A DNA stretch of 64,000 bases from a plasmid: the sequence record NZ_CP010801.1, one strand, 5' to 3'. The number at the start of each line of letters is the position of its first letter. The first letter of the stretch is position 1. This document shows, one piece after another, positions 8,828 to 60,759 of this stretch. Below the pieces are notes generated by a model. That model saw nothing but the letters and a program-made list of their open reading frames with translations, made no database searches and had not been told where the DNA came from. Position numbers and translations under genes: made by a program.

Positions 8828-10525
<1,698 letters not shown>

Positions 10526-10860: not shown

Positions 10861-10872
10861 GGTGAACTCCGA

Positions 10873-11223: not shown

Positions 11224-11294
11224 GCGCTTGTCCTTTCGAATTGAAATTGGATAGCGTAACCTTACTTCCGTACTCATGTACGGAGTCAAGCGAT
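11224..11294. promoter_or_regulatory. divergent merR/merT operator-promoter (merOP) with MerR dyad TCCGTAC-N4-GTACGGA (11267..11284)
   Basis: On the merT strand the region reads TTGACT (complement of 11284..11289), a 19-bp spacer containing the dyad, then TAAGGT (complement of 11259..11264). This is the classical over-long-spacer PmerT. Confidence 0.85.
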
Positions 11295-11729
11295 ATGGAA
11301 AACAATTTGGAGAACCTGACCATTGGCGTTTTCGCCAAGGCGGCCGGGGTCAATGTGGAGACCATCCGTTTCTATCAGCGCAAGGGCTTGTTGCTGGAGC
11401 CTGACAAGCCCTATGGCAGCATCCGCCGCTATGGCGAGGCGGATGTAACGCGGGTGCGCTTCGTGAAATCAGCCCAGCGGCTGGGCTTCAGCCTGGATGA
11501 GATCGCCGAGCTGCTGCGGCTGGAGGATGGCACCCATTGCGAGGAAGCCAGCAGTCTGGCCGAGCACAAGCTCAAGGACGTGCGCGAGAAAATGGCTGAC
11601 CTGGCGCGCATGGAGGCCGTGCTGTCTGAGTTGGTGTGCGCCTGCCATGCGCGAAGGGGGAACGTTTCCTGCCCGCTGATCGCGTCACTACAGGGTGGAG
11701 CAAGCTTGGCAGGTTCGGCTATGCCTTAG
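11295..11729 (+). CDS. merR: Hg(II)-responsive transcriptional regulator MerR
   Basis: 144 aa, [33 protein letters not shown]... with Hg-binding Cys residues near the C-terminus. Confidence 0.9.
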
Positions 11730-11762
11730 CGTGCTTTATTTTCCGTTTTCTGAGACGACCCC
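11725..11762. repeat. terminal inverted repeat (mer end) of the mer transposon
   Basis: The reverse complement is GGGGTCGTCTCAGAAAACGGAAAATAAAGCACGCTAAG. It overlaps the merR stop codon. Confidence 0.85.
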
Positions 11763-11921
11763 TTTAAGGTTGAGGCAGCCGGAGTGGCCAAGATCGGCGA
11801 AGGTTGGGTGGGGCCGAATGCGCACAGCTTGGCGATCGATCCCGCCACGCATGAGATTTATCTTCCCCTGCCGGACATCGACCATCATCCGGTGATGCGT
11901 GTCTTGAAGCCCGACACCTGA
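11763..11921 (+). pseudogene. 3' fragment of a gene truncated by the transposon end (no start codon)
   Basis: The open frame directly abuts the IR and reads FKVEAAGVAKIGEGWVGPNAHSLAIDPATHEIYLPLPDIDHHPVMRVLKPDT*. It looks protein-like, but its identity is not established. Confidence 0.3.
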
Positions 11922-11975
11922 CGCACGCCGAACGCGCGACAATAGTCGAGCCCGCGCTCAACCACGATTGTCGAC

Positions 11976-13034: not shown

Positions 13035-13040
13035 GGCGCG

Positions 13041-14339
13041 ATGCCGGATATTGACCGCTATCTCGAAGCCGCGACCCGCGATAACACGCGGCGCAGCTAC
13101 CAATCGGCCATTCGGCATTTCGAGGTCGAGTGGGGAGGCTTCCTGCCGGCGAGCGCCGACAGCATTGCGCGCTACCTGGCCGACCACGCGCAGACGCTTG
13201 CCATCAACACGCTGCGTCAGCGCCTTGCTGCGATCGGGCAGTGGCACGTTTCACAGGGTTTCCCCGACCCGACCCGGGCGCCACACGTGCGGAAGGTGCT
13301 CAAGGGCATCCAGGCACTGCACCCTGCCCAGGAGCGGCGCGCCAAACCGCTGCAACTCATGCAACTGGAGCGATTGGTCGCGTGGCTCGATGCCCAGATC
13401 GCCACAGCTACGGTGGCAAATGCGGGCCGTCAACTCCAGGTCCACACCCGTAACAAGGCGCTGGTGCTGATCGGCTTCTGGCGGGGTTTCCGATCGGACG
13501 AACTGAGCCGGCTGCAGATCGAGCACATCACCGTCGAACCTGGGCGCGGCATGACCATCTTCCTGCCGCGCACCAAGACAGACCACGTTGGTACGACGCA
13601 CCGGGCACCGGCCTTGTCGCGTCTGTGCCCGGTGGCGGCCTACGAGGCATGGCTGGCCGCATCCGGCTTGACGCGGGGTCCGGTTTTTCGGCGCATCGAT
13701 CGCTGGGGGAAGATCGCCGACGCCGGGCTGCAGGCCGCCAGCGTCGTGCCCTTGTTGCGAACGTTGTTCCAGGAAGCCGGCCTGCCCGAGGCGGCTCGCT
13801 ATAGCAGTCACTCGCTGCGGCGCGGCTTTGCCTCCTGGGCCAACGCGAACCAGTGGGATCTCAAGATGCTGATGGAGTACGTCGGCTGGAAGGATGTCCG
13901 CTCCGCCATGCGCTACATTGACGCGGCAGACCCATTCGCACAACACCGTATCGAATCGGCGCTGGCGCCGCCTGCAGCACCTATGCCACCGCGGGCCATC
14001 CCACCCGCATCGACGGAGCAGCGCCCCATGGCTGTGCCCAAGCCCGTGGCTCAGACGCGCTTGATCGTGCGCCTCTATATCGAGCGCAACAGCAAGTTCG
14101 TGCGCGGCAAGTCCAAGGCGCGTCGCTGGATTGAGCAGTGCTGCTTGGCCCAGTACCAAATGCGGCCGCTGGAGGGCCCCCGCACCGAATACGAGATCGT
14201 GATGCCGTTTGCCGCTGGCCCCGAACTGGAACAGGCCATCGCGGAACTGATTGCGGAGATGCACGACCAGGCGGACCTGTGCAACTGCTTTGTCGAGGTG
14301 ACGCTGCACGATCCGGTGACCGATACCCACTGGAGCTAA
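13041..14339 (+). CDS. tyrosine site-specific recombinase (phage-integrase family) with a roughly 110-aa C-terminal extension
   Basis: 432 aa. An N-terminal core-binding-like region leads into a catalytic domain (…HSLRRGFASWA…VGWKDVRSAMRY…) carrying the R..H..R..Y signature. It is convergent with and adjacent to a Tn3-family tnpA. Confidence 0.8.
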   Translation: MPDIDRYLEAATRDNTRRSYQSAIRHFEVEWGGFLPASADSIARYLADHAQTLAINTLRQRLAAIGQWHVSQGFPDPTRAPHVRKVLKGIQALHPAQERRAKPLQLMQLERLVAWLDAQIATATVANAGRQLQVHTRNKALVLIGFWRGFRSDELSRLQIEHITVEPGRGMTIFLPRTKTDHVGTTHRAPALSRLCPVAAYEAWLAASGLTRGPVFRRIDRWGKIADAGLQAASVVPLLRTLFQEAGLPEAARYSSHSLRRGFASWANANQWDLKMLMEYVGWKDVRSAMRYIDAADPFAQHRIESALAPPAAPMPPRAIPPASTEQRPMAVPKPVAQTRLIVRLYIERNSKFVRGKSKARRWIEQCCLAQYQMRPLEGPRTEYEIVMPFAAGPELEQAIAELIAEMHDQADLCNCFVEVTLHDPVTDTHWS

Positions 14340-14364
14340 TCAGCCTGGGACTTGCGAATTGCCA

Positions 14365-44951: not shown

Positions 44952-45875
44952 ATGCAAATCCACCCCCTTACCCTCTCCGCGAACAAGTTACATATGCCGC
45001 CCCGCATGGCGGTGTCCGCGCCTCCGCCGCCACTCTCTCTCGACGACATCGAGCGCGACGCTATGCTGCTTGAAAAGCACGAGCGAATCCGTCGCTGGCA
45101 GTGTGGAGCAGGGGGTCTTGTCGTGGGTCTTATGTTGGGAGCCGGCGGAGCAACACTCGCTTGGTGGTATTCCGCAAAGTTGACCGCCCCCACGATCAAT
45201 AGCTCGTCGGCCAAGCAATCGTCGATCAAGCAGATGGCGATTCCAGCAAGCGCGGTCAGTGCGATTGCTCCGGTAGCCAGCGCAGTCATTGCTGCAACGT
45301 CTGATGCCAGCGCACCGCAAGTCGTGGCGCCAGTGTTCGCATCGGCGGTTGTCGCCTCCGCGCAAGCTCAGCAGGGCTCAATCCAAAAAGCCTCACCTAC
45401 CACGCGGCCTGCGGCTTCCGCGCCCCTCGCAGCCGCCCCCGGCGCACAACAGATGCAGGAGCTTCGTCGCATCATGCCGTTGCCTCCGTTGCCTGCTGCG
45501 GCGACCGCACCGGCGCTTCCCCTGCAGGAAAAGGCCAAGCCGGAAAGGGTGGCGGGCAGCCCCGCACACGCCGATGCTTCAAACGTCGTGCTCTACGTCG
45601 CAAAGCCCGCGGGGGAAATCACACCGGCAGCGCCCGCGCCCTCCGCTCCTGTACCACCAGCAACTTCGCAACCGGTCGGGCATGCGCCCGCCACACCAGG
45701 TTTTCGCATCGTCTCCATCCCGATGCCTGGGCTCGCGATGGTCGCGCAGGGAGAGAACGTCACGCCGGTACATGCCGGCGGCAAGCTCCCTGATGGCTCC
45801 GTCCTTGAATCCGCCGATCCGACGTCGGGTGTGGCGCGCACCAACCGCACGACCTTTACTCTCAAAGGAAAATAA
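44952..45875 (+). CDS. membrane-anchored Ala/Pro-rich protein, hypothetical
   Basis: 307 aa with one TM helix (GLVVGLMLGAGGATLAWWY), a long low-complexity A/P region and a C-terminal globular segment. Confidence 0.4.
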   Translation: MQIHPLTLSANKLHMPPRMAVSAPPPPLSLDDIERDAMLLEKHERIRRWQCGAGGLVVGLMLGAGGATLAWWYSAKLTAPTINSSSAKQSSIKQMAIPASAVSAIAPVASAVIAATSDASAPQVVAPVFASAVVASAQAQQGSIQKASPTTRPAASAPLAAAPGAQQMQELRRIMPLPPLPAAATAPALPLQEKAKPERVAGSPAHADASNVVLYVAKPAGEITPAAPAPSAPVPPATSQPVGHAPATPGFRIVSIPMPGLAMVAQGENVTPVHAGGKLPDGSVLESADPTSGVARTNRTTFTLKGK

Positions 45876-46474
45876 TGGGCAACCTGCTCCGACATTCGTA
45901 CAGCGACAATAGCCAGATCAACCCGCAATCCCACTTGCAAGATGAGCAAGACGACGCAAACACAGATCCGCGCGCCCAGTTGATCACCGATCAGAACATC
46001 GAACGCTACCGGCAGGACGCAAGCCAATTCGCCCCTACGCAACCACCCAAACCGATCAAGCAGGCCAAGCCGATGGCGATCGGCGTGGTCGAAGTCAATG
46101 ACGCAGCTGAAGGCATCCGCACGTATATCGCCGAAGGCGACGTCATTGAGGGTGATCTTCGTCTGAAGACCTCAGGGCTTCGCTTGGCTGGACACGTCAA
46201 GGGCCGTATCTACTGCGAGAAGGGCTCAGTCATCGTTGAATCTACCGGCGTCGTTGACGGCGGCATCGAGGCCGAAGGCCGCGTTATCGTTGACGGACAG
46301 GTGGGGCACCAAAACAACATTGAAAACACCGGCGCCACGCGCCTGATCATCCGCACGCCGGGCCTACTGGCGGTGTTGGGTAACGGCAAGGTTTACGGCA
46401 ATTACCACTACGGGCGTATCGCCTGCTACGACGACGCGACCATCGAGGGGATGGGGCGCAAGGTAAGGGGCTAG
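45875..46474 (+). CDS. bactofilin-like (polymer-forming cytoskeletal) protein
   Basis: 199 aa. The C-terminal half has repetitive G/V/I beta-helix-like spacing (...GRIYCEKGSVIVESTGVVDGGIEAEGRVIVDGQVG...) as in the bactofilin/DUF583 family. Its start overlaps the upstream stop (TAATG). Confidence 0.55.
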   Translation: MGNLLRHSYSDNSQINPQSHLQDEQDDANTDPRAQLITDQNIERYRQDASQFAPTQPPKPIKQAKPMAIGVVEVNDAAEGIRTYIAEGDVIEGDLRLKTSGLRLAGHVKGRIYCEKGSVIVESTGVVDGGIEAEGRVIVDGQVGHQNNIENTGATRLIIRTPGLLAVLGNGKVYGNYHYGRIACYDDATIEGMGRKVRG

Positions 46475-46477
46475 GAG

Positions 46478-47119
46478 ATGCAGCGCTGCTCGGTGCATTT
46501 CGCGGGCCGGCTGATCGATCTGGACGATCCGGGCGCGCTGGATGTTGGCGCCATCGCTGCAACGCTCTCTCGCATCTGCCGTTTTGCCGGCAATCTGCGT
46601 GACGATCACCAGATCTCGTGGCACAGCGTCGCTGACCATTGCGTACTCACGGCGGAACTGTTGCGCCGTCGTGGGATGCCGGCCCAGACATGCTTGGCCG
46701 GCCTTTTGCACGACGCACATGAGGCACTGATCGGCGATGTCATCACCCCCACGAAAACATGGCTTACCGGAGGCGGCTACGGCACGACCCATGCAAAGCG
46801 CAAGGAACATGATCTGGAACGCAAGGTTCTGCGCTCTCTCGGCTGCGAACCGGGCACGCAAGCAGGGGTTTTCGTCAAGCAGGCGGACGTAGAGGCGCTT
46901 CACATCGAAGTCTGCGCGCTTGGCCTGCCGCATACGTCGTTCGGGCTGCGCAGCGTGGTCCCGTTCGATCAAGCGATGCTCCGCGAGCTTGGCGTCTTGC
47001 AGCCGACCGCGCATCTGCCCATGGCCGCCGTATTCCTGGCCAGCCAACAGCGGTTTCTGAAGACCTATGCAGCCTTGCGCATGACGGGCGAGTGCGTGCC
47101 AGAGGCTGCCCATGCCTGA
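46478..47119 (+). CDS. HD-domain phosphohydrolase, YfbR-like 5'-deoxynucleotidase family
   Basis: Motifs WHSVADH and LLHDAHEALIGDVITPTK match the YfbR/HD-3 dNMP nucleotidase signature. An AGGAG RBS precedes it. Confidence 0.6.
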   Translation: MQRCSVHFAGRLIDLDDPGALDVGAIAATLSRICRFAGNLRDDHQISWHSVADHCVLTAELLRRRGMPAQTCLAGLLHDAHEALIGDVITPTKTWLTGGGYGTTHAKRKEHDLERKVLRSLGCEPGTQAGVFVKQADVEALHIEVCALGLPHTSFGLRSVVPFDQAMLRELGVLQPTAHLPMAAVFLASQQRFLKTYAALRMTGECVPEAAHA

Positions 47120-48014
47120 CGCAAATCCTCGCGTGCTGGTCGTCGGTGCAGGACCGGCTGGGCTGACTTGCGCAAGCCATCTTGCCAAGATGGACGTGGC
47201 GGTTGACCTGGCCGAGCAAGGCCAGGCCGTCGGTGGCGCGGTTCGCCAATATGAGCACGCCGAAATCTGGGTGCCGATTCCTGGCCTGACCGCTAATTCG
47301 CTCGTTGCCGGCTTCCGCCAGGAGGCCCGCCAAGCCCGCCTGACGCTTCTGCTGGGCCGACGCGTGACATCAATCCAGGTGCGCGAGGATTGCATCCTTG
47401 CCGATGATCAGCCGTATGCTGCCGTCGTGCTCGCCACGGGCGCTCCACCGCGCGGTTTGGAGCACGCCGGCGAGGGAGTGATCGTCGCGCCGGGCAGGGC
47501 GTTGGAATCGGTCGATGTCCGTGGTCTGCGTGTGGCGGTGTGCGGCGGCGGTGACAACGCGTTCGAAAACGCCGCCCGCATGCGGCGCGAGGGCGCAGCC
47601 TGTGTAGATGTGTTCTCTCGTGGGGATCTCCGCGCAAGACCGCAACTCATCCGTGAGGCGCTTGATCTTGGCGCACGGATTGCGGTGGGCCCGTATCGCA
47701 TCGAGGGGCGACGAATCGTGCGCGCGCAGGATCCACGGAACGACGACCAATTTGACATCGTGGCAGTGCTCTGGGGATTCGCACCGCGCCTCCCGAAGAT
47801 CGAGGCGCCAGGCCTGACTGCAGGAGCCCCCCTCAAGGGCCGCCACCCACTGCCGCGCCTGTGGGTAATCGGTGACGCCCTTCCTGACGAGGAGCGATCG
47901 ATCCTCGCTGCAATGGGTGATGGATCACGTGTGGCGAAGGCTGTAGAAGCCTTCCTGCACAGCGATCAATGCTGGACCGAAAAGGCATTGTCACTGGGTG
48001 CCGTCGATGCTTGA
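47112..48014 (+). CDS. FAD/NAD(P)-binding oxidoreductase (thioredoxin-reductase-like fold)
   Basis: An N-terminal VLVVGAGPAGLTCA dinucleotide-binding motif, a second VAVCGGGDNAFENA GG motif and a C-terminal WVIGDA. Confidence 0.65.
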   Translation: MPDANPRVLVVGAGPAGLTCASHLAKMDVAVDLAEQGQAVGGAVRQYEHAEIWVPIPGLTANSLVAGFRQEARQARLTLLLGRRVTSIQVREDCILADDQPYAAVVLATGAPPRGLEHAGEGVIVAPGRALESVDVRGLRVAVCGGGDNAFENAARMRREGAACVDVFSRGDLRARPQLIREALDLGARIAVGPYRIEGRRIVRAQDPRNDDQFDIVAVLWGFAPRLPKIEAPGLTAGAPLKGRHPLPRLWVIGDALPDEERSILAAMGDGSRVAKAVEAFLHSDQCWTEKALSLGAVDA

Positions 48015-48741
48015 GTTTATGATGCAGCGCGATGATGGCGTGTGCAAAGTGGAGCGCGCTGCCGTACGCCAAGCGCACTGGATGTGCGACGACATTGTGG
48101 CCGAGGCCGGAGCAGCCATAGCGGTTTTGCGCGGCGAGCCAGATGGCTACAGGCGCGATGAGCGGCACCTTTGTCCCGTCGGGACCGTCGAGTTCTGCCG
48201 CGAGTGGATGCGCTTGACTGGCGTGGCCGAGCCGGTGCCGATCGATTATCCCGCGTCGTTACGCGATGTGCTGGGCCGCGTCGTACAGTGCGTGCCATTT
48301 GCCGACGCGACGATCGGGGCGTGGATCAAGCCAGCGCGTACGAAGGCCTGGCTCCCGCAAGTCAAGCAATCGGATCGTGACCACCATCCTGACGAGCTTG
48401 TTTGGGAATCAGCCGTCATCCCGGAATCTGACTGGCTAGCTGAGTGGCGCGTCTACGTGCGCGATGGAGCGATCATTGGCTGCGGCAGGTACGACGATCG
48501 ACCGGTGGAGAACATCGAGCTCGACGCCAAGCTCGTGGAGTCGTGGATCCAGCGCTGGGAGGCCACCGGCCGGGCACCACGCGGCTACGCACTCGATGTG
48601 GCGCGTTGGCCAAGGCAAACGGTGCTTGTAGAAGCGACCGACGCCTGGGCAATCGGCCTGTACAAGGGAACCTGCCGGGCGGAGGGCTACACCAGGATGC
48701 TGGCCGCACGCTGGGGAGAAATAGCCAAGCAAGTCCTCTGA
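48007..48741 (+). CDS. ATP-grasp-like protein, hypothetical
   Basis: About 245 aa. ...PESDWLAEWRVYVRDGAIIGCGRYDD... is compatible with an ATP-grasp C-terminal subdomain. Family assignment is tentative. Confidence 0.45.
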   Translation: MLEFMMQRDDGVCKVERAAVRQAHWMCDDIVAEAGAAIAVLRGEPDGYRRDERHLCPVGTVEFCREWMRLTGVAEPVPIDYPASLRDVLGRVVQCVPFADATIGAWIKPARTKAWLPQVKQSDRDHHPDELVWESAVIPESDWLAEWRVYVRDGAIIGCGRYDDRPVENIELDAKLVESWIQRWEATGRAPRGYALDVARWPRQTVLVEATDAWAIGLYKGTCRAEGYTRMLAARWGEIAKQVL

Positions 48742-48808
48742 ATGTTGCATTGTGTTGCGTCTATTGGTAATTGTGGTAAAATGCCACCAACCATAGGGGA
48801 GCACAATC

Positions 48809-49672
48809 TTGAATTTCAACAACATCCGCCGTTCTCTTCGCTTCGCTCTCGCCCTGCTGGCGGCCGTTGCGCTCGGTGGCACGCTTACGCCAGGGCTGGC
48901 GCGCCAACACCATCACCAACTCTCGCTGACAGACATCTTTGGCGCACCGGCACTGTCACAAGACTGCGAGAGTAACTTCTTGCAAGGCCAGGCCCCACAG
49001 GTCACGAATCCAAAGCTGGCCGCCCAAACGCGCGAGCTTTGCAACCCCGGGTATGCCGTGCTTCATTCAGGCATCACCCGCACGCCGCTTTGGAGCGCCG
49101 AACACCTGACGCAGCCTCGTATCCGCGCTTCGATCAATCTGAGCCGCGAAGACAGCTTCCGCTCCGATGATCGTCTGCCGATGGCTGAGCGTGCCGAGCT
49201 TGACGATTACGCACGATCTGGATGGGATCGTGGGCACATGAGTCCCAACAAGGACGCACCGGACAGAACCAGCCAGTCCGCGACGTTCCTGCTGTCGAAC
49301 ATGATCCCGCAGGCACCCAAACACAACCAGCACCTGTGGGAATCCATTGAACGAGCAACGCGCCAGCTGGCGCTCAATGGACATGACGTCTACGTGGTGA
49401 CCGGCCCGGCATTCCTCGGGAGCCAGTTGCGTCGCACCGGACACGTGGCCATTCCCTCGCACGTCTGGAAGGCTGTCTACGTGGCCGACACGGGTGAAGC
49501 TGCGGTGTGGTGGACGGAGAATACCAACGAGTCCGGGTATGATTTGATTTCGCTCGATGAGCTTGCCCGGCGCACCAGTATCGCCCCCTTTCCGGCCGCT
49601 TCTGCTGCATCTCGTGTGATGGTGGCGCGCCTGCCGAAGCCGCGGCAGCGCCATTCCAGCAACAACTTCTGA
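48809..49672 (+). CDS. secreted DNA/RNA non-specific endonuclease (Serratia-nuclease / EndoG family)
   Basis: Signal peptide (LRFALALLAAVALGG), the catalytic DRGHM motif and the NMIPQ...N metal-binding region. TTG start after AGGGGA. Confidence 0.8.
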   Translation: MNFNNIRRSLRFALALLAAVALGGTLTPGLARQHHHQLSLTDIFGAPALSQDCESNFLQGQAPQVTNPKLAAQTRELCNPGYAVLHSGITRTPLWSAEHLTQPRIRASINLSREDSFRSDDRLPMAERAELDDYARSGWDRGHMSPNKDAPDRTSQSATFLLSNMIPQAPKHNQHLWESIERATRQLALNGHDVYVVTGPAFLGSQLRRTGHVAIPSHVWKAVYVADTGEAAVWWTENTNESGYDLISLDELARRTSIAPFPAASAASRVMVARLPKPRQRHSSNNF

Positions 49673-49682
49673 GGGGATCCAG

Positions 49683-49931
49683 ATGGACTACTTTGCCAAC
49701 GAAAGCCAAGTGCTGCGGGTGGGTGACTTTGAATTTGCCAACCGCACTGATCGCATTACGATCGGCGGGGGGGACATCACGCGCGACGAAGACGGCCTGA
49801 AAACGCTGCGCGCTCTGGCTGAGCAGCTGCGCCAGATCGAAGCGGCGCTGACCGTCGATCGCGACAAAGGCCAACTGCCCAAGAAGATCGCGATCAAGGC
49901 TGATACGAGCGAGGCCAATCCCTTCAACTGA
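49683..49931 (+). CDS. small protein downstream of the nuclease (possible nuclease inhibitor/immunity), hypothetical
   Basis: 82-aa acidic cytoplasmic protein with a GAGGGGA RBS. Confidence 0.35.
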   Translation: MDYFANESQVLRVGDFEFANRTDRITIGGGDITRDEDGLKTLRALAEQLRQIEAALTVDRDKGQLPKKIAIKADTSEANPFN

Positions 49932-52678: not shown

Positions 52679-52836
52679 GCCTCTGACGTGATTAAGAGCG
52701 AGCCGTTTTGATCTGCGGACGTTGCGAGAATATTTTAATGCATGTATTGTCATGTCACGCAACATGCTGATTTATTGGGATCGGTTTCGCCTGACCCCAA
52801 ACTACTTACAGATCCACTCACGCTTTAAGGCAACCC

Positions 52837-53133
52837 ATGTCCACGTACGCAGAGTTAATGCAGCAGATCAACGATCTCAAGGTGCAAGCCGAGCAACTTC
52901 GAATTCGCGAGCGCGACCAGTTCATTGCTGAAGTGCGCGAGAGAATCCACGCGTACGAGATCACCCCCGCAGACTTGTTCGGAAAACCCAAGGGCGTCAA
53001 GGTAGTCGGGACGGTCGCGGTCAAATACCGGGACACCAACGGGAACGTCTGGTCCGGCCGCGGAAGGCAACCGTTCTGGCTGGTCAAGGCGCTGGCGGGG
53101 GGGAAGAAGCGCGAGGACTTTCTAGTTTCCTGA
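52837..53133 (+). CDS. H-NS-like nucleoid-associated protein (xenogeneic silencer family)
   Basis: 98 aa. An N-terminal coiled-coil dimerisation region leads into a C-terminal ...YRDTNGNVWSGRGRQPFWLVKAL... H-NS-type DNA-binding motif. The upstream region is AT-rich. Confidence 0.75.
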   Translation: MSTYAELMQQINDLKVQAEQLRIRERDQFIAEVRERIHAYEITPADLFGKPKGVKVVGTVAVKYRDTNGNVWSGRGRQPFWLVKALAGGKKREDFLVS

Positions 53134-54178
53134 GCCCTTACATCTTCACGCTATCCAATGGCATCGCGTAAAAACGCTACGCCATACTTTACAAAGTCAC
53201 GCAACGCTCTATAATAAGCCACATCGAGTTTGACTGGGCCGAGCGCGTGAGCGTCGAGGAAATGGCCCAAAGCTGATGCGGGTAAACGTCGCGCAAGACC
53301 GCATCTAACCCCCGGACATGGACGCCTGGCGGGACAGCGAAACAGTCCAGGTCGGGTCTCGGATCCGACGCTGCCGAGCCTGGGGAAAGGCCCTCCGCGG
53401 ACGCGGATCAAGGGCGGCACAACCAGGTGCACATCTGGCGCCGGAGCGAGTAACCGGCCATCCCTTACGCGAGGAGTCGATCCGCCGGGCCTGTCGGACA
53501 GCCTGGCGGGGATCCCAGGGACCGACTTAACCGGGGCGCTTCGCTGGGCTGAAGAACCGGGGATTGGGCATAGCAAAACCCAGCATCCTCATGCATGGCG
53601 ATTGCCGACTTGGGCTTGATGCCGTAGGGACTGGCCTGCAGAGCGGGAAAACAGTCGCCAGCCGTGAGGGAACGCGCGGGCTGACGCGCAAGGGTCGGGC
53701 GGCACGAAACCTTTCCGCGCGAGAGCCGCGACTAGCGGAAGCCAGACAGAGCTCAGCACTGGCCCCTCAACCTTCACGCATGGCGATTCGCTGAAAGTCG
53801 GCTACCCCAGTCCCGCCGACTACATGCCGGCCCGCGCAAGCCGGATGAGCTTGGGATCGAGTCGCCAGCCGTGAGGGAACGCGCAGTGGTGATGCGCTGT
53901 ACCGGTAGACGGGCGACGCGCGTCTGAAAGCCGCAAGCGGGCCTCGCGTGAGCCGCGCAAGCCGGGATACACACCTCCGGCCCCTCACCCCAAACCGGCC
54001 GCACGATAGGGCGGACGCTGGAACCCGTCACCAGCGCAGCAAGACGGCAGTGAAAGCCTGCGCCGGAGACGTAACCGGCACCAATACCGATGGTGGCGCT
54101 CAGCATGTATAGACGCGCCATTTTTTTGGCCCCAAACAGCATTAATACACGCATCCGGCACTTTTTATTGTTTCGACG
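53134..54178. other. about 1 kb non-coding region with internal structured direct repeats (candidate structured RNA / regulatory leader)
   Basis: No credible ORF: all six-frame ORFs here are Arg/Pro/Gly-rich. One repeat pair is 53586..53675 and 53768..53885, both ending GTCGCCAGCCGTGAGGGAACGCGC. A second pair is 53429..53458 and 54057..54084 (...GCGCCGGAG.GTAACCGGC...). Confidence 0.3.
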
Positions 54179-54883
54179 ATGACCACCACCCCCAAATCCC
54201 TGCGCGCCCGTGTCGAAGAGGTCGTGCGCGAAGCTGGCGGACAGTATTCGCCGGGCCTGCGCGTGGCGCTGCCTGCAAGCCAGGTGCTTGAAATCGCTGG
54301 AGCGCTCGAGCGCGGCGTGCCGTCGCCCGAGGACGCGGCGCGCACAAAAGCGGCGCGCAGGGAAATCAAGAGCGAGTTGCATTCCGAGTTGGCCGCGGGC
54401 CTGAATCTGATGCGGGCGGCGATCGCCAAGCGCATTGGCGAGGCTGACGGCGACATGCGCGCGGCCATCCTGGCTAACGCGATGCTCGACGCGACGGAAT
54501 CCGCCGTGGAAGAAGCAGGGTACTTCGCGACCAACACGACGCTGCAGCGCGCCGCCGTGGACCGGTACATCGAGCGTGTCGCGATCGCGTTCGGAGCGCT
54601 GGAGCGGCTGCATGCCTTCGCCAAGGCCCAGCTGCCGGAACCCATCGATCCGGCCATCGCTCCCGCAGCCATGGCCGTGAAAGACCTGGATCTGTCCACA
54701 CGCACGCATAACTGCTTGCGGCTGGAAGGCATCAAGACGCTGGCTGACCTGATGGGCTGCCGCGCCGATGAATTGCTGCGCATTCCGAACCTCGGGCGTA
54801 AGGGGCTGGCGGAAATCGAGCACGAACTGGCGGCACGCGGCTTCCAGCTGGCCACGAGCCGCAATCAAGCCGGAGCTCGTTGA
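54179..54883 (+). CDS. protein with C-terminal RNA polymerase alpha-subunit CTD-like domain
   Basis: 234 aa. The C-terminal ...VKDLDLSTRTHNCLRLEGIKTLADLMGCRADELLRIPNLGRKGLAEIEHELAARGFQL matches the alpha-CTD helix-hairpin-helix signature. The N-terminal 160 aa are uncharacterised. Confidence 0.6.
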   Translation: MTTTPKSLRARVEEVVREAGGQYSPGLRVALPASQVLEIAGALERGVPSPEDAARTKAARREIKSELHSELAAGLNLMRAAIAKRIGEADGDMRAAILANAMLDATESAVEEAGYFATNTTLQRAAVDRYIERVAIAFGALERLHAFAKAQLPEPIDPAIAPAAMAVKDLDLSTRTHNCLRLEGIKTLADLMGCRADELLRIPNLGRKGLAEIEHELAARGFQLATSRNQAGAR

Positions 54884-55797
54884 TGATCGCAATCGACCTG
54901 TTCGCCGGCGCTGGCGGATTCTCGGAGGGGGCCAAGCTGGCCGGGGTGCACGTCGCTTGGGCAGCCAACCATTGGCCACTCGCCGTGCAATTTCACGCAG
55001 CCAACCATCCCGGCACGTCGCACAAATGCCAGGACCTGCAGCAGGCCGACTGGCGGGATGTTCCGCGCCACGACATACAGCTGGCGTCTCCGGCGTGCCA
55101 AGGTCACAGTCCGGCACGCGGCAAGGAACGGCCGCACCACGATGCGCTACGCAGCACGGCATGGGCCGTGGTCAGCTGCGCTGAATACCATCGCAGCCCG
55201 ATCGTCCTGGTAGAGAACGTCCCGGGCTTCAGGGACTGGACTCTATACCCGGCTTGGGAACACGCGATGCGCAGTCTGGGCTACAGCGTGTCCCCGCATC
55301 TGGTGGATGCCGCCGATCATGGCGTGCCGCAGCACCGCGAGCGGCTGTTCCTGGTCTGCACCCAGAGCAAGGCTCCGCTGCAGCTGCGCCTGCCGCGCCG
55401 CGAGCACGTCTCCATTGGCAGCGTGATCGATTGGGACGCTCACACATGGACGCCCATCGACAAGCCCGGCCGCAGTCCGAAAACCTTGCAGCGCACCGAG
55501 GCCGGCCGCGCTGAATTCGGCTCGCGCTTCGTCGCACCCTACTACAGCAGCGGCAGTGGTTTGAAAGGCCGCAGCATCCACCGACCCATCGGGACCATCA
55601 CCACACGCGACCGCTGGGCGGTGATCGACGGTGATCGCATGCGGATGTTGCAGGTCCCCGAGATCAAGGCGGCAATGGGCTTTTCGCCCGACTACACGCT
55701 GCCGGCAACCAAGAAGGAAGCCATGCACATGCTGGGCAATGCCGTGTGCCCGCAAGTTGCCGCCGATCTGCTGAACGCGCTGCGCAACGCCGCGTAG
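54883..55797 (+). CDS. DNA (cytosine-5)-methyltransferase
   Basis: Motif I IDLFAGAGGFS, motif IV PCQ, ENV, and QHRERLF. Its start overlaps the upstream stop. Confidence 0.9.
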   Translation: MIAIDLFAGAGGFSEGAKLAGVHVAWAANHWPLAVQFHAANHPGTSHKCQDLQQADWRDVPRHDIQLASPACQGHSPARGKERPHHDALRSTAWAVVSCAEYHRSPIVLVENVPGFRDWTLYPAWEHAMRSLGYSVSPHLVDAADHGVPQHRERLFLVCTQSKAPLQLRLPRREHVSIGSVIDWDAHTWTPIDKPGRSPKTLQRTEAGRAEFGSRFVAPYYSSGSGLKGRSIHRPIGTITTRDRWAVIDGDRMRMLQVPEIKAAMGFSPDYTLPATKKEAMHMLGNAVCPQVAADLLNALRNAA

Positions 55798-55810
55798 ACA
55801 AGGGCGTCCC

Positions 55811-56359
55811 ATGACGAACACTACCGAGAGCACACACACCATGCCGCGCATCTACCTCGCTGGTCCTGATCTGTTCTTCCCGGATGCCGAAGCGCGCTAC
55901 GACGCGCTGAAGGATCTGTGCGCACGCTATGGACTCGAAGGCGTCGCGCCGACGGATGGCCAGACCTTCCCCATCGAGCCAACTGCGGCCTGTGCGCGCC
56001 GCATTCGCGAGCACGACCTTTCGCAGCTGCGCAGCGCGGACGCCGTGCTCGCCAACATTACGCCGTTTAACGGTCTGGAGCCGGACTCGGGCACGGCCTA
56101 CGAAATTGGCTTTGCTGCCGCGCTCGGGATGCCTGTCGTCGCGTACTGCCTCGATGGCCTGGACACTCGAACCCGAACGCTGCGCGCGGGGCGGCTGCTC
56201 AATGTGCATGGTCGTGATGATGAGGGCCTGCTCGTCGAGAACTTCGGGCTACACGCCAATCTGATGCTGTGCGCAGAACATCCAACGTTTTCTTCGGCGG
56301 ATGAGGCAGTTCGCGCTCTCGCCGAGATCCTATTTGGCGCTGCGCAAGCCGCTGCCTGA
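55811..56359 (+). CDS. nucleoside 2-deoxyribosyltransferase-like protein (Ndt/Rcl family)
   Basis: ...RIYLAGPDLFFPDAE... and ...DSGTAYEIGFAAALGMPVVAY... match the family signature. An alternative start at 55841 (MPRIYLAGP) is likely. Confidence 0.75.
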   Translation: MTNTTESTHTMPRIYLAGPDLFFPDAEARYDALKDLCARYGLEGVAPTDGQTFPIEPTAACARRIREHDLSQLRSADAVLANITPFNGLEPDSGTAYEIGFAAALGMPVVAYCLDGLDTRTRTLRAGRLLNVHGRDDEGLLVENFGLHANLMLCAEHPTFSSADEAVRALAEILFGAAQAAA

Positions 56360-56465
56360 AGCCATTACCGCTCAATGGGCGCCTGGCGCAGCAGCCGTTT
56401 TGCAGGCGGCAAGCTGTGAAGCAGGGGGAGCCAGGCGCCCACCCTTCAATGCTCGTAGATAGCCG

Positions 56466-56648
56466 ATGGATACAACTCTCGAAGAAGCACAAGCCGCTGC
56501 CGCCAGATTTGCGGACGAAAGCTGCTTACCCCAAACCGTCTACCTCTTGAAGGACTCCGGCGGCTGGTGGCACACCAATCCGCTGGCCAGCTTGCTGGTG
56601 TCGGCCGAAGTCTTCGTGACCGTGCTGCCACTGCGCTACTTCGCGTGA
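56466..56648 (+). CDS. small hypothetical protein
   Basis: 60-aa ORF between operon genes. Weak support. Confidence 0.25.
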   Translation: MDTTLEEAQAAAARFADESCLPQTVYLLKDSGGWWHTNPLASLLVSAEVFVTVLPLRYFA

Positions 56649-56696
56649 GATCTGAAATGGGAGTCCAACTTCGCTTGAGATGACAGGGGACGCTTC

Positions 56697-57743
56697 ATGG
56701 CGGAAAACACAAACATTGCATGGTGCGATCACACCTTCAATCCGTGGGAAGGTTGTCAGAAGGTTGGCCCCGGCTGCGACCACTGCTACGCGGAGACGCG
56801 AAATGCTCGATTCAGTGGCGGTACGTCCGTCAATTGGGGGCCTGGCGCGCCGCGTCGGCGCACTTCGGCTGCCAACTGGAGAAAGCCGATAGCCTGGAAC
56901 AGGAATGCTGGCGAGTTTTACGCCCAACACGGGCGAAGGCAGCGCGTCTTCTGCGCGAGCCTCGCCGACGTGTTCGACAACGCAGTCGATCCGACGTGGC
57001 GCGAGGATCTATTCGCTCTGATCCGCGCAACCCCAAATCTTGACTGGCTGCTGCTCACAAAACGCATCGGCAATGTACCCAGCATGGTTTCGCTTATTCC
57101 GGGCTGGCTGCCAGAAAACGTCTGGCTCGGCGCCACGATCGTCAACCAGGCCGAGGCCGATCGCGACATCCAGAAGTTACTCGAGACGCCCGCGCGCGTG
57201 CACTTCCTGTCGATCGAGCCGATGCTTGGGCCGATCAACCTGGAGAGCGTGGCGTGGCCGTCGATAGCCGAGCATCGCGTCGATGCGCTACGAGGAGGCT
57301 ACTGGAACAAGGCGGGCGTGCTGGCCTGTGGGCCGGCCGCGGGTCTTGGCGAACCTCGCGGCGGATTCACGAACCACAGCGATATGCCGGGGCGCATCGA
57401 CTGGGTGATCGTCGGCGGAGAGAGCGGTCCTGGCGCGCGGCCAATGCACCCGGACTGGGCTCGAGATCTGCGTGACCAGTGCGTGTCGGCCGGCGTGCCC
57501 TTTCTCTTCAAGCAATGGGGGGAGTTTGTGCCGGGCTCTGGCGACTTCGGTGCTGGGCAATACGTCACAGCGGCTGTTGCACGCGACGGTCGCATTGTCC
57601 CAGGTGGATTTGACGCGGCCGCCTATCCGCGCGGCGCAACTTCCGCAGACGGCTGGGCAATGGTCCATCGGGTTGGGAAGAAGGCGGCCGACCGCCTGCT
57701 CGACGGCGCCCAGCACGACCAATTTCCGCATGTGCGCTCGTGA
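56697..57743 (+). CDS. phage Gp37/Gp68-family protein (DUF5131; three-Cys-motif TcmP-like)
   Basis: N-terminal IAWCDHTFNPWEGCQKVGPGCDHCYAE signature. GACAGGGGA RBS. Confidence 0.75.
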   Translation: MAENTNIAWCDHTFNPWEGCQKVGPGCDHCYAETRNARFSGGTSVNWGPGAPRRRTSAANWRKPIAWNRNAGEFYAQHGRRQRVFCASLADVFDNAVDPTWREDLFALIRATPNLDWLLLTKRIGNVPSMVSLIPGWLPENVWLGATIVNQAEADRDIQKLLETPARVHFLSIEPMLGPINLESVAWPSIAEHRVDALRGGYWNKAGVLACGPAAGLGEPRGGFTNHSDMPGRIDWVIVGGESGPGARPMHPDWARDLRDQCVSAGVPFLFKQWGEFVPGSGDFGAGQYVTAAVARDGRIVPGGFDAAAYPRGATSADGWAMVHRVGKKAADRLLDGAQHDQFPHVRS

Positions 57744-57752
57744 GGAATAGCC

Positions 57753-58052
57753 ATGCCTTGCTACATCGAACGAACGAAGGACGGCGGCGTGATGTTCCTG
57801 TGCGGCGACCTTGGGCCGCATTGCGCAGCCGATAAATGCTGCGCGCTGGGCGTCAATTTGTGCGATTTCCCCGTAGGCGAGGGCAAGACCTGCGACTTGC
57901 CACTGTGCAACAGCCACGGCTACGAGGTTGCGCCGAACGTGCACTACTGCCCCGGCCATCTCATTCTGTGGAACGCATACCGAGAATCTGGCGCGGTTGA
58001 GCGCGAGCTTTCCAACGTGGTTCCGCTTGGGCGGACGCCGAAGCCGGAATGA
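57753..58052 (+). CDS. small Cys-rich protein, hypothetical
   Basis: 99 aa with 11 Cys residues (CGDLGPHCAADKCCALGVNLCDFP...CDLPLCNSHGY...YCPGH). Confidence 0.4.
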   Translation: MPCYIERTKDGGVMFLCGDLGPHCAADKCCALGVNLCDFPVGEGKTCDLPLCNSHGYEVAPNVHYCPGHLILWNAYRESGAVERELSNVVPLGRTPKPE

Positions 58053-58092
58053 GCAAGTAATCCGTCTGCCAACACCATCATCCAACGCACGC

Positions 58093-59268
58093 ATGCAAAC
58101 GCTCTTACCGCTCAACTTCGTTCCGCGCACGCCACCCGCTTCTTTCTGGCAGCCGGTCAGCGCAAAGACGGACTTGCCGCCCGTGACCACCACGCCGGAG
58201 GTTGCCGCCGCGCTCTCTCGCGACTGCGTGGTCGCCGTGGGCGTGAGCGGCGGCAAGGATTCAGTCGCGTGCGCGCTCGCCACCGCGCGCTATTTGGATG
58301 AGATCGGGCACACTGGTCCGCGCGTGCTGATCCACTCGGATCTGGGGCGCGTCGAGTGGCGCGACAGCCTGCCATCATGCGAGCGCCTGGCGCACGCGCT
58401 GGGCTGGGAACTGCTGGTCGTCACGCGCCAAGCCGGCGACATGCTGGCGCGATGGGAGGGCCGATGGCAAAACAACGTCAAGCGCTATGCTGACCTGGCT
58501 TGCGTCAAGCTGATACTGCCGTGGAGCACGCCGTCTATGCGCTTCTGTACGAGCGAGCTCAAGGTCGCCATCATCTCGTCGGCGCTGCGCAAGCGATGGC
58601 CGACGCAGGAGATCGTCAACGTGTCGGGCATCCGCCGCCAGGAAAGCGCCGCACGAAGCAAGATGCCTGTGTCAGTGCGCATGCCAAAGCTTTGCCGGAA
58701 AGGAGCCGAAGGGCTTTCATGGCACCCGATCATCGAGTGGAAGGTGCAGGAGGTGTTCGGAGCCATCGCGGACGCGGGCCTGCAGCTGCACGAGGCCTAT
58801 ACGCGCTATGGCATGAGCCGCGTCAGCTGCGCGTTCTGCATCATGTCGTCGGCTGCCGACCTGGAGGCCTCTGTGTCGTGTATCGACAACCAGCCGGTCT
58901 ACCTGCAGATGGTCGAGCTCGAGGCTGCCAGCACGTTCGGATTCCAGTCTGGGCGTTGGCTGGCCGATGTCGCACCCCATCTGCTATCCACGGACCTGCA
59001 AGCCAAGGTGGAGCGTGCCAAGCTGGCCGCTGCCGAGCGTGAAGCCTTGGAGGCCAGGCTGCCGGCACACCTGCTGTACACCGGCGGCCTGCCAACGGCT
59101 GTGCCGACGTTCGATGAGGCTACCTTGGTCGGGCAGATCCGCCGGCGGGTTGCCGAGCTTGTCGGCATCGAGGTCAGGTATCTCCATGCCGCCGAAATCC
59201 GCGACCGATACGCGGAGCTTCTTGATCGGCGCGAGGAGCATGCGCCGAACTCTCTCGTCATCGTTTGA
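58093..59268 (+). CDS. PAPS-reductase-like PP-loop ATP pyrophosphatase family protein
   Basis: 391 aa from the internal ATG. PP-loop VVAVGVSGGKDSVACALA. PAPS reductase / DndC-like fold family. Confidence 0.7.
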   Translation: MQTLLPLNFVPRTPPASFWQPVSAKTDLPPVTTTPEVAAALSRDCVVAVGVSGGKDSVACALATARYLDEIGHTGPRVLIHSDLGRVEWRDSLPSCERLAHALGWELLVVTRQAGDMLARWEGRWQNNVKRYADLACVKLILPWSTPSMRFCTSELKVAIISSALRKRWPTQEIVNVSGIRRQESAARSKMPVSVRMPKLCRKGAEGLSWHPIIEWKVQEVFGAIADAGLQLHEAYTRYGMSRVSCAFCIMSSAADLEASVSCIDNQPVYLQMVELEAASTFGFQSGRWLADVAPHLLSTDLQAKVERAKLAAAEREALEARLPAHLLYTGGLPTAVPTFDEATLVGQIRRRVAELVGIEVRYLHAAEIRDRYAELLDRREEHAPNSLVIV

Positions 59269-59552: not shown

Positions 59553-59628
59553 TTAAGGGCGAGGAGTAGAACGTTAGGCGCTTTGGATCGGCCTGCGCAC
59601 CTGTCTTGCCTGAATGAAGCCGAGATAT

Positions 59629-60744
59629 ACTGTACATATATGTGGGGTATCCACTTAGCTCCACCAGCACAGGATAACTGGATGGATATACAGTATTCGT
59701 ATGCTACACCGTCTCGACCCGGTTCACTACATCCGCATACGTCACAGGGCCGGTAACGACCGCTTGCTGAAGCAGCCGATAGAACAAGAGACCGCGCGAG
59801 CCCGAGGTGCGGCGATTGAAGCGGAACACGAACTCATCCAGGTAGGCGTCCAGATGTTCGGGCTGAACCGAGCCGTGATGCGTGCCGAGAATCCAGCGTT
59901 TGACCAGTGAAGCAACCCGATGAACGCCAGCCATCGAAACGTGAGCTGGCACCTCGGCACCCAGCATCACATTGCGCTGGTGTTCGTAACCCAGCTTGCT
60001 CAATGTCCGGTAGGCTGCTGACCCGTCAGTTCTGACTTGGGCGCCAGGCTCAATCGACGCCTGTATGAACGGGATGACGCATTCGGCGCCATCGTTCTGG
60101 ATGCGCTGCAAGCGTATCCGGCCGAAGCCCTTGGGCTGAAGCATTTCGACCGCAAGGATGACCAGCACTTTGCTCGTGCGGTTCTTGCGGTTGATGGCCG
60201 AGATAGGGGCCTCTCGGTCCGTGATGGCCAGGTAGGTCTCGTCAACCTCTACACACCCCTTCAGGCGTTCGCGGTCCGGTCGCACCATAGCGCGGCGAAA
60301 CCGGTGCAGCATCGTCCAAGCGGTCTGGTAGCTTCCCAGGCCTAGCACCCGTTGCAAACCAAGGGCGCTGACGCCTTGCTTTTGATTGGTCAGATACCAC
60401 GCACCAGCCAGCCACACACGTAGCGGGGTACGGGTCTTGTCGAATATCGTGCCAGCGGTCACCGTCGTTTGGTGAGCGCAACTGCGACACATCAGGCGCG
60501 TGCGGCTCGACCGATAAGGCTCGGCCGCTACGCCGCAATCAGGGCAAACGAACCCCTGCGGCCACCGCAATCCCTCCAGGTAGGACAGGCAAGCCTCTTC
60601 CGTCCCGAACCGGTCCAGAAACTCGTTCCAGTTACGGGGGTAGTCCTTCCCCGGTTCTGGGGGTAATATCTGCTTTACCTGTATATCCATCCAGTGATTC
60701 TGGCATGGCTGGAGCTAAGTGGATAGCCCTTACATATATACAGT
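59629..60744. mobile_element. IS1595-family insertion sequence (approximate ends)
   Basis: A single 328-aa transposase gene is flanked by imperfect inverted repeats of about 65 bp (ACTGTACATATATGTGGGGTATCCACTTAGCTCC... on the left, its reverse complement on the right). Total length is about 1.1 kb. Confidence 0.65.
59704..60690 (-). CDS. IS1595-family transposase (ISXO2-like, zinc-ribbon N-terminus + DDE domain)
   Basis: N-terminal zinc ribbon CPDCG...CRSC, then a DDE transposase domain (ISXO2-like). The start codon lies inside the IR. Confidence 0.85.
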   Translation of the reverse strand: MDIQVKQILPPEPGKDYPRNWNEFLDRFGTEEACLSYLEGLRWPQGFVCPDCGVAAEPYRSSRTRLMCRSCAHQTTVTAGTIFDKTRTPLRVWLAGAWYLTNQKQGVSALGLQRVLGLGSYQTAWTMLHRFRRAMVRPDRERLKGCVEVDETYLAITDREAPISAINRKNRTSKVLVILAVEMLQPKGFGRIRLQRIQNDGAECVIPFIQASIEPGAQVRTDGSAAYRTLSKLGYEHQRNVMLGAEVPAHVSMAGVHRVASLVKRWILGTHHGSVQPEHLDAYLDEFVFRFNRRTSGSRGLLFYRLLQQAVVTGPVTYADVVNRVETV

Positions 60745-60759
60745 TGTTTCGAGGGTGTC

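Follow-up and report, generated by a model that had tools for sequence, protein, structure and literature searches.

A probable gene for a large modular RNA on a plasmid, and its family in phages of Burkholderiales

Introduction

To our knowledge, few large RNAs with complex folds have been described from bacteria and phages beyond ribosomal RNA, RNase P, group I and group II introns, OLE, GOLLD, ROOL and raiA. Each of these has led to new biology; ROOL and GOLLD, for instance, form RNA-only cages. Both are large RNAs of phages and prophages, and are often encoded near tRNA islands (PMC5737381, PMC12286853). Here we describe a non-coding interval of 1045 nt, positions 53134-54178 of a 64,000-nucleotide stretch of the plasmid record NZ_CP010801.1 (the window). 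The interval probably contains, at 53188-54127 on the + strand, a self-contained gene for a structured, modular non-coding RNA (ncRNA) of ~0.9 kb, which is a plasmid-borne member of a family found in phages of Burkholderiales.

The resemblance to ROOL and GOLLD is one of kind. Like these RNAs (about 0.6-0.8 kb), the present one is large, rich in GC and in GNRA motifs, and predicted to adopt a complex fold; its relatives are carried by phages or prophages, often near tRNA genes with which they are probably co-transcribed (nine loci have tRNA genes near the element, on the same strand every time); and there is no constant protein partner, no protein family accounting for more than 5 of 150 neighbouring proteins. 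Five of the nine are tRNA-Met, and one GOLLD RNA lies downstream of tRNA-Met, with tRNAs sometimes inside GOLLD itself. The RNA has a conserved and a variable part, as does GOLLD. The differences are equally clear: there is no homology of sequence or structure and no Rfam match even at E <= 10; ROOL and GOLLD each have a single fixed multi-junction fold, whereas the present family is modular, with one to three repeats of a hairpin scaffold; and the phages that carry it, those of Ralstonia, Limnohabitans and Acidovorax, have Betaproteobacteria as hosts. The copy in the window departs from the usual phage or prophage setting, in that it lies on a conjugative plasmid or integrative and conjugative element (ICE) of a Ralstonia/Cupriavidus-type host, with no tRNA gene nearby (ARAGORN). 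By analogy with ROOL and GOLLD we regard these elements as a new modular family of structured RNAs that probably act in trans.

Results

Repeated modules in a non-coding interval

The interval lies between a gene for an H-NS-type protein (52837-53133) and a gene for a protein of 234 amino acids (aa; 54179-54883, +). A model given the sequence alone had proposed that the interval is non-coding and holds two pairs of structured direct repeats (the original prediction), and both proposals were borne out. Periodicity of GC-content at codon positions is absent over 53280-54090 (max-min difference <=0.17, compared to 0.3-0.4 in the flanking genes). Mechanical open reading frames (ORFs) of 43-141 aa are present; none of the six has a Pfam match, and the longest is without a tblastn match in plasmids. 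The GC-content of the interval (65-70%) is above that of its neighbours; for the window as a whole it is 61.7%, which corrects the 65% given at first.

Every repeat of the original prediction was located. An exact 25-mer, AGTCGCCAGCCGTGAGGGAACGCGC, occurs at 53653-53677 and 53860-53884; a 15-mer, TCA(T/C)GCATGGCGATT, occurs at 53589-53603 and 53774-53788; and the proposed bracketing pair, GCGCCGGAG(CGA/AC)GTAACCGGC, forms a GCGCCGGAG..GUAACCGGC hairpin that is itself a feature of the family (Table 1). Further repeat pairs within the interval (families D3, D5 and D8) show that a unit of ~200 nt has been duplicated. The repeated module, too, is real, although its variable base is the third of CA(T/C)GCATGG and not the second base of a C(A/T) start, as had been thought.

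The closing pattern of the module, CCUUCACG-CA-UGGCGAUUG ... CAGUCGCCA-GC-CGUGAGGG, is found twice. In both copies CCUUCACG pairs with CGUGAGGG (helix P1), followed by a 2x2 internal loop, CA/G(C/U); pairing in P1 of unit 1, which carries UCCUCAUG, is kept through wobble. The second helix (P2) is UGGCGAUUG/CAGUCGCCA in one copy and UGGCGAUUCG/CGAGUCGCCA in the other, with a swap of G-C to C-G between them. Both modules are followed by the same 3' accessory set, namely a hairpin led by AA(U/C)GC (P3) and then a hairpin with CCCUCA(R)CC. Each module may accordingly be pictured as a long hairpin with an invariant base, a covarying P2 and a variable interior, to which P3, a variable stretch and the CCCUCA hairpin would be appended. 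Folded alone, the two module hairpins are more stable than shuffled sequences (z -2.0 and -2.7).

A family of covarying modules

JGI metagenomes scanned with a two-anchor pattern yielded 23 loci, ~18 of which are true homologues: they also carry a 5' flank, CC(U)UCACGC, that the pattern did not require. A second pattern, in which P2 was left free, retrieved 31 IMG/VR viral contigs. BLAST located the conserved 3' part of the module in the Ralstonia phages Gervaise, Heva, Alix, Claudette, Darius, Gamede, Gerry, UAM5 and p2110, and the small hairpin after the module was matched over short stretches in Limnohabitans phage DC31 and Acidovorax phage AP1; almost every one of these phage matches falls inside an unannotated gap. 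With dozens of independent homologues elsewhere, the repeats are not due to chance.

The family consensus is 5'-(C)CUUCACG-CA-U-[P2]...interior 45-100 nt...[P2']-A-G(C/U)-CGUGAGGG-3'. P2 is about 9 bp long and retains its pairing while its sequence varies; the interior is hypervariable. Elements contain one to three modules. No larger version was seen than the window copy, whose two canonical modules and one diverged module lie in ~0.9 kb; its location on a plasmid is also unusual.

The evidence that P2 is a helix comes from covariation. Among 46 distinct modules, seven variable P2 pairs each show 10-18 changes affecting both sides and four to six pair types; 88.7% of P2 cells are paired, compared to 31-45% when the partner is slid, and the covariation score was matched by none of 500 shuffles. 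Because this set had been pre-filtered for at least six of eight P2 pairs, the count was repeated without the filter on 28 distinct viral matches: 184 of 196 unconstrained P2 cells are paired (94%), in 25 different helices. The suggestion that the closing GGCGA...TCGCC stem is "covariation-like" was thus correct and extends to the family, P2 covarying heavily across phage homologues. P3 also covaries family-wide (GCGCA/UGCGC, GCCCA/UGGGC, GCGCG/CGCGC, GCGUG/CACGC).

P1 behaves differently. Its 3' strand is invariant, while its 5' strand alternates between C and U opposite G (U.G in 37 of 46 modules at one pair). A covariance model built from full sequences (R2) scores the window modules, both of which are in its training set, far higher on the + strand (Table 1) than on the - strand (15 and 7 bits). 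The alternation of C and U opposite G, together with the higher + strand scores, identifies + as the folded strand; the G.U wobbles observed count as standard pairs on that strand alone. On both strands of the 64 kb, R2 finds nothing else above 16 bits. An earlier model (R1), in which the interior was replaced by a GAAA linker, missed real modules and was superseded by R2.

Searches for plasmid relatives returned little. A nucleotide search with the whole 1045 nt gave no match among PLSDB plasmids and GenBank phages, and at BLAST sensitivity the element is absent from PLSDB save for one short, doubtful match. Four related plasmid loci with DUF5131 or methylase genes (L001 and L019-L021) contain large unannotated gaps without similarity to the RNA, and the covariance model found no match in them. 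A 19-mer produced only nine chance matches in 185,579 GTDB species genomes; this probe is too strict, the diverged relative described below (L022) differing at 3 of 25 positions.

The Rfam comparison put forward with the original prediction was carried out. At gathering thresholds the whole window has no match in Rfam 15 (including GOLLD, ROOL, OLE, HEARO and raiA). At E <= 10 nothing relevant was found over 52700-54600, the weak P17 and Atu_C7 matches lying inside the downstream gene, and 21 related loci gave nothing relevant at gathering or permissive thresholds. We read the RNA family as new; it is uncatalogued in Rfam 15. We found no description of it in the papers searched, although it may be one of the candidate phage RNAs, more than 10,000 and unnamed, of PMC10690425.

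Transcription signals and a diverged plasmid relative

The modules are preceded by a sigma-70-type promoter, TTTACA-16 nt-TATAAT, that agrees with the consensus at 11 of 12 positions, and are followed by a terminator-like hairpin, GGUGGCGC..GCGCCA, then U7 (fold -12.2 kcal/mol). Sequence scans thus place both signals on the strand of the modules, and their limits predict a + strand transcript of ~905 nt. Over this stretch A outnumbers U (191 vs 122) and GNRA motifs number 52, compared to 35 +/- 5 expected; both excesses are typical of large folded RNAs.

Contigs encoding an identical H-NS protein are useless for covariation: the RNA region is 100% identical in all of them, with L018 differing by an assembly N-gap only. 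Assemblies with this plasmid block include GCA_014142205.1 and GCA_000483225.1, from Ralstonia. A related but diverged plasmid backbone, L022, was reached through an H-NS homologue of 87% identity. Here three extra genes (10535-12162), for proteins of 113 aa and 97 aa and for an SRAP/SOS-response-associated peptidase of 310 aa, separate the H-NS gene from the RNA gene, whose upstream neighbour is thus the SRAP gene, and the RNA homologue (835 nt) lies directly upstream of the counterpart of the 234-aa gene, as it does in the window. The RNA therefore travels with the downstream block and not with H-NS. Homology between the two begins ~25 nt upstream of the -35 box, the sequence further upstream being unrelated. 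The promoter occupies the homologous position, and changes in the terminator are confined to its loop (Table 1). The single module of L022 joins hairpin 2 of the window to tail 1, which shows that modules are exchangeable by recombination at their conserved ends.

For the 5' domain, an RNAalifold comparison of the window with L022 predicts 113 pairs, none of which is broken by the ~23 differences. Three pairs carry compensatory changes and three carry wobble-compatible ones. The hairpin GUCGG/CCGAC becomes GGCGG/CCGCC with a new loop in L022, and every substitution in its helices is either compensatory or compatible with wobble pairing. One helix of this domain resembles the closing helix of the modules, which suggests a third, diverged module (unit 0 in Table 1). 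With two sequences, such evidence is supportive rather than conclusive for the 5' domain.

A second partner for the invariant 8-mer

Besides its partner in P1, the invariant CGUGAGGG has a second. The motif CCCUCA occurs 30-260 nt downstream of 27 of 42 modules (a control window placed upstream contains it in 7 of 42) and is a second conserved partner of CGUGAGGG, its pairing (b:c) being exclusive of that in P1 (a:b). CCCUCA usually stands directly after a hairpin of 5-6 bp, most often GCCGG-N8-11-CCGGC. In 13 of the 27 cases the nucleotides that come next are a purine and CC, and in 6 they are RCCA. When the segments from CGUGAGGG to CCCUCA were folded alone, 18 of 18 formed a closed multi-branch domain whose closing helix stacks on the last hairpin. 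Lengthening of the b:c helix is correlated between subfamilies (GAGGG-UG with CA/CG-CCCUC; GAGGG-AA with GC-CCCUC; permutation P ~0.01, relatedness uncontrolled). Minimum free energy (MFE) folds of full-length sequences favour hairpin P1 over the acceptor-like b:c pairing.

The modelled geometry of the CGUGAGGG-CCCUCA segment resembles an acceptor/T-arm with RCCA, and some hairpin interiors carry GGUUCGAnUCC arms. An acceptor/T-arm with a discriminator and CCA comprises the determinants that RNase P recognises (PMC11143913). In this respect the segment is similar to RNase P-processed phage RNAs and tRNA-like structures (C4 of P1/P7, CI of P4, the tRNA-like domain of tmRNA), and a conserved scaffold with variable loops is also a property of the C4 and CI immunity RNAs. 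It differs in matching no tRNA, tmRNA or C4 model, in showing no excess of complementary targets within 3 kb, and in that the acceptor-like helix competes with P1 and CCA occurs in so few units. In locus L077 (3150-3456, -) two modules lie on either side of an 80-nt element for which ARAGORN reports a tRNA-Phe(AAA) whose acceptor stem is poor. At its 5' end this element shares the GGG of CGUGAGGG in the first module, and at its 3' end CUCUCAACC replaces the usual CCCUCAACC.

A doubtful but conceivable extension is that the transcript is a polycistronic precursor. CGUGAGGG would first close the scaffold hairpin with CCUUCACG and afterwards form the acceptor-like stem with CCCUCA, whereupon RNase P and tRNA 3'-end enzymes would cut the array, along with neighbouring phage tRNAs, into small tRNA-like decoy RNAs with hypervariable bodies. 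These might bait host factors directed at tRNA, such as anticodon-nuclease defence, tRNA-modifying enzymes or the translation apparatus. If true, phages and this plasmid would deploy a new type of RNA device, serving counter-defence or takeover of the host.

Genomic context of the family

According to PHROG and Pfam annotation, members of the family reside in tailed-phage genomes, being found in phages and prophages of Burkholderiales. Typical upstream genes belong to replication (DnaB, primosomal proteins, Holliday-junction resolvase); downstream or nearby are terS, terL and portal genes, HNH endonuclease, a metallophosphatase "exonuclease", endolysin, DNA methylases and integrase. In about one locus in three, the nearest real genes on the downstream side point towards the element, endolysin and exonuclease genes being among these convergent neighbours. 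Of 33 loci that could be evaluated, 18 have a same-strand intrinsic terminator within the 500 nt that follow the element, where ~0.09 would be expected.

Two loci contain additional elements. In L027, a Proteo-phage-1 RNA (RF03044, 62 bits; 1412-1494) lies ~320 nt upstream of the module on the same strand, so that two different structured RNAs share one phage gap. In L081 (Ralstonia phage Heva), an annotated IS200/IS605-family transposase (ISPa83; 3643-4713) is inserted immediately behind the RNA element, between this and terS; the 3' end of the transposase gene has a weak HgcC-like Rfam match (25 bits; threshold 50).

The locus in the window

Coordinates of the features of the RNA gene are collected in Table 1. 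The sequence GCCCTTACATCTTCACGC..ATGGCATCG, right after the H-NS stop codon, may be a relic left by the rearrangement that placed the RNA beside H-NS; this is a weak reading of a likeness to a module junction that is not conserved in L022.

Table 1. Features of the RNA gene and its immediate surroundings (positions in the window).
Feature	Position	Strand	Basis
Possible relic of a further module junction, GCCCUUACAUCUUCACGC..AUGGCAUCG	53134-53168	+	Resembles 53762-53790 (family D4); upstream of promoter
Sigma-70-type promoter	53188-53215	+	Scan; identical in L022
Predicted ~905-nt ncRNA	53222-54127	+	Promoter, terminator, no coding signal, composition
5' domain, including diverged module (unit 0)	53222-53581	+	RNAalifold, window vs L022
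Putative unit 0 closing helix, CCUC(C)GCG/CGCGAGG	53392-53399 / 53468-53474	+	G-C to A-U change vs L022
Bracketing hairpin, copy 1, GCGCCGGAGCGAGUAACCGGC	53438-53458	+	Hairpin type also directly before modules in viral loci L055 and L063
Module 1 hairpin	53582-53670	+	R2 62.9 bits (copy in training set); fold; pair counts
Module 1 P1	53586-53593 / 53663-53670	+	Fold
Module 1 P2 (CA/GC internal loop between P1 and P2; variable interior)	53596-53604 / 53652-53660	+	Fold
P3 hairpin after module 1, GCGCG-GGCUGA-CGCGC	53674-53689	+	Family-wide covariation
Segment c1: hairpin GCCAG..CUGGC, CCCUCA (53764-53769), ACC	53741-53772	+	Repeat family D3
Module 2 hairpin	53767-53877	+	R2 68.4 bits (copy in training set); 97% conserved in L022
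Module 2 P1	53771-53778 / 53870-53877	+	Fold
Module 2 P2 (CA/GC internal loop between P1 and P2; variable interior)	53781-53790 / 53858-53867	+	Fold
P3 hairpin after module 2, GCGCA-GUGGUGA-UGCGC	53881-53897	+	Family covariation
Segment c2: hairpin GCCGGG..UCCGGC, CCCUCA (53982-53987), CCC	53961-53990	+	
3' domain	53988-54059	+	Part of 94-nt stretch 53992-54085 identical in L022
Bracketing hairpin, copy 2, GCGCCGGAGACGUAACCGGC	54060-54079	+	Analogous hairpin just before terminator in L040
Terminator-like hairpin and U7	54092-54127	+	Stem and T-run kept in L022

The only recognisable part of the 234-aa protein is an RNA polymerase alpha C-terminal domain (alpha-CTD; residues ~164-218). In a database of 5.8 billion proteins it has no homologues beyond its own 90% cluster, and a search for further copies of the RNA by way of this protein went no further than that cluster. 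A free-standing alpha-CTD borne by a plasmid could be a decoy for UP-element or activator contacts. The genes that follow, all on the + strand, encode an orphan C5 cytosine methylase, a nucleoside 2-deoxyribosyltransferase, a DUF5131 protein (phage Gp37/Gp68; PADLOC candidates PDC-M41B/M30B) and a PAPS-reductase/DndC/BrxP-like protein. The block is co-oriented (54880-59268) and may serve DNA modification or anti-restriction; around the RNA, PADLOC gave just the methylase, DndC/BrxP-like and candidate matches, and no known defence system was recognised in full.

The window also contains type IV secretion system and type IV pilus genes, a NikA-like gene and a Tn3-family/mer region. The last is part of a composite transposon region (357-17340) with Tn3-family transposase fragments, a resolvase, a MerA-type mercuric reductase, an EamA transporter and a tyrosine recombinase, and is unrelated to the RNA. 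Downstream of the NikA-like gene (~44.6 kb, -) stands a co-oriented run of genes for a bactofilin, a flavin oxidoreductase, an R2K-clade ATP-grasp protein and an Endonuclease_NS (45875-49900, +), which may be the plasmid leading region. An IS1595-family element (59628-60745) is 99.5% identical to a copy in plasmids of Ralstonia sp. RRA.1, where it is annotated as ISRama1 family; this is in favour of a Ralstonia-type host.

Discussion

Three interpretations accompanied the original prediction: a large structured RNA, a tandem riboswitch-like leader, and a recombination or packaging site. The first is the one that stands, on the strength of the promoter and terminator, the compensatory changes in L022 and the covariation across phage homologues. 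The statement that the region is not a tRNA, transfer-messenger RNA (tmRNA) or CRISPR array also proved right: ARAGORN finds no genes in the window, and there is no Rfam match to tRNA or tmRNA. The variable neighbours, the frequent convergent genes, the probable co-transcription with tRNAs and the possession of its own signals lead us to favour a stable RNA that acts in trans. Such an RNA would be made as an abundant species. A conserved host factor would bind or process the invariant platform of P1 and the internal loop as well as the conserved single-stranded motifs, and the modules would carry their variable interiors as cargo. In this plasmid, read-through of the terminator probably feeds the alpha-CTD/methylase operon as well, as no further promoter was detected before it.

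Several observations weigh against this interpretation. The 5' and 3' domains are supported by two sequences, the window and L022, and RNAalifold is biased toward unbroken pairs. In the window the promoter and terminator are consensus matches only; the terminator hairpin is no more stable than shuffles (z -0.32), and a strict terminator scan missed it because its loop is 15 nt. The MFE of the whole region is no better than that of shuffles (z = -0.76) and is not significant on either strand, which means that single-sequence thermodynamics alone could not have exposed the RNA. P1 is without double compensatory changes because its 3' strand is invariant, and since the retrieval patterns fixed P1 and parts of P2, the apparent invariance of sequence is inflated. 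That CGUGAGGG has a second partner in CCCUCA makes the fold of the module base ambiguous. Wobbles, moreover, determine the strand and not the chemistry, as single-stranded DNA (ssDNA) also tolerates G.T pairs. Finally, both the trans-acting function and the host partner are things that we purely infer.

A different reading, possible but on balance unlikely, has the RNA act in cis as a 5' leader of the alpha-CTD/methylase operon that controls or overrides its own terminator, and as a late-operon leader in phages. It might do so by processive antitermination or by a switch of the invariant 8-mer between its a:b and b:c pairings, which are conserved and mutually exclusive. The HK022 put RNA and EAR are cis-acting processive antitermination RNAs and, as with these, a promoter-proximal structured RNA is combined with an intrinsic terminator and a long operon, an arrangement present in the window and, ahead of terminase genes, in many phage loci. 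The RNA lies directly upstream of the alpha-CTD gene in both plasmid lineages while its upstream neighbour differs, and the start ATG of that gene is 51 nt past the terminator-like hairpin. A promoter scan detected none directly before the operon besides the one upstream of the RNA, and for this reason a leader or antitermination role keeps appreciable weight at this locus; in this particular plasmid there may be a leader effect. In phages the element is often just upstream of, and co-oriented with, terS, terL or portal genes, and in L036 it is bracketed by signals in the order promoter, element, terminator, terminase. For the family at large the reading fares less well. Where the downstream genes are convergent there is no operon to regulate, and the genes downstream are unrelated between loci. 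One to three modules with hypervariable interiors are unexpected for a polymerase-modifying element; compared to put and EAR the window-type element is much larger, modular and often without a co-oriented operon. The b:c pairing does not overlap the window terminator hairpin, and no riboswitch, leader or antitermination family in Rfam matches. The unrelated neighbours, the convergent genes in about a third of loci and the absence of an Rfam riboswitch match also tell against the tandem riboswitch-like leader first suggested.

Readings in which the element works as DNA, or once encoded protein, have to accommodate the same data. It is improbable that the hairpins function as folded ssDNA, for example as an ssi/primosome-assembly site or a single-strand promoter during entry of the plasmid into a recipient. 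They are strand-specific, and the region is ~8 kb from the NikA-like gene, in a co-oriented block with anti-restriction-type functions that may be a leading region; plasmid-associated structured motifs may, moreover, act as ssDNA (PMC5737381). Most members, however, occur in tailed double-stranded DNA phages, which lack conjugative transfer, and the element is absent from PLSDB plasmids save for the doubtful match. The upstream promoter is of duplex type and the only + strand match, no -35/-10-like hexamers are visible in the conserved stems on reading the sequence, and the U-run terminator and co-orientation with tRNA genes point to RNA. We give still less credence to an array of protein sites in duplex DNA (CCTTCAC, CCCTCAC and inverted GTGAGGG), whether for cos/pac, partition, iterons or a recombinase. 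The heptamer does recur in direct and inverted form, phage elements lie near terS/terL and HNH genes, where cos/pac sites occur, and modules have been shuffled between plasmid lineages. The shuffling is explained by homologous recombination between conserved segments, and duplex sites cannot account for 94% pairing of a freely changing helix, for compensatory changes in other hairpins or for the asymmetry of C/U opposite G. This asymmetry, the dedicated promoter and terminator and the tRNA co-orientation indicate a transcript where a recombination or packaging site had been envisaged. That the interval is the remains of a protein-coding gene has next to nothing in its favour beyond the mechanical ORFs: codon periodicity and matches to the ORFs are absent (Pfam for the six, tblastn for the longest), a ~200-nt block and a 1-nt indel set L022 apart without conservation of frame, and the homologues in cultured phages are intergenic and unannotated.

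A number of more specific candidates were considered and rejected. Integron attC sites share with the modules an arrangement of tandem imperfect hairpins of 80-140 nt with conserved bases and variable centres, and a capacity for shuffling between lineages; the cores here are CCUUCACG/CGUGAGGG and not RYYYAAC/GTTRRRY, there are no ORF cassettes between copies and no adjacent IntI-type integrase, and the element has a promoter, a terminator and tRNA co-orientation. A riboswitch leader was set aside for want of an Rfam aptamer match, with downstream genes unrelated or convergent across loci. A Csr/Rsm sponge is not indicated, GGA being unenriched (25 vs 21.7 +/- 3.9 expected). For a cis-antisense immunity RNA, complementarity of the interiors within +/-3 kb was no better than in shuffles (1 of 42 at p <= 0.05; same-strand perfect matches only). 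Kissing between modules could be proposed from an 8-nt match in the window, GGGACUGG/CCAGUCCC (chance p ~0.05), which is absent in six other two-module loci. A type III antitoxin (ToxI-like) would comprise near-identical tandem repeats of ~36 nt ahead of a terminator and an endoribonuclease toxin gene, whereas the units here are ~200 nt and diverged, and in the downstream protein just an RpoA C-terminal domain is recognised, without a PADLOC match.

The family is widespread in phages of Burkholderiales, including cultured and tractable Ralstonia phages, and its design is unusual: the hairpin base is invariant in sequence and bears interiors that vary freely, the unit occurs in one to three copies, and there is a link to tRNA genes. 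In the window the RNA heads a block of orphan-methylase and DNA-modification genes, and may bear on the establishment of mobile elements in new hosts.

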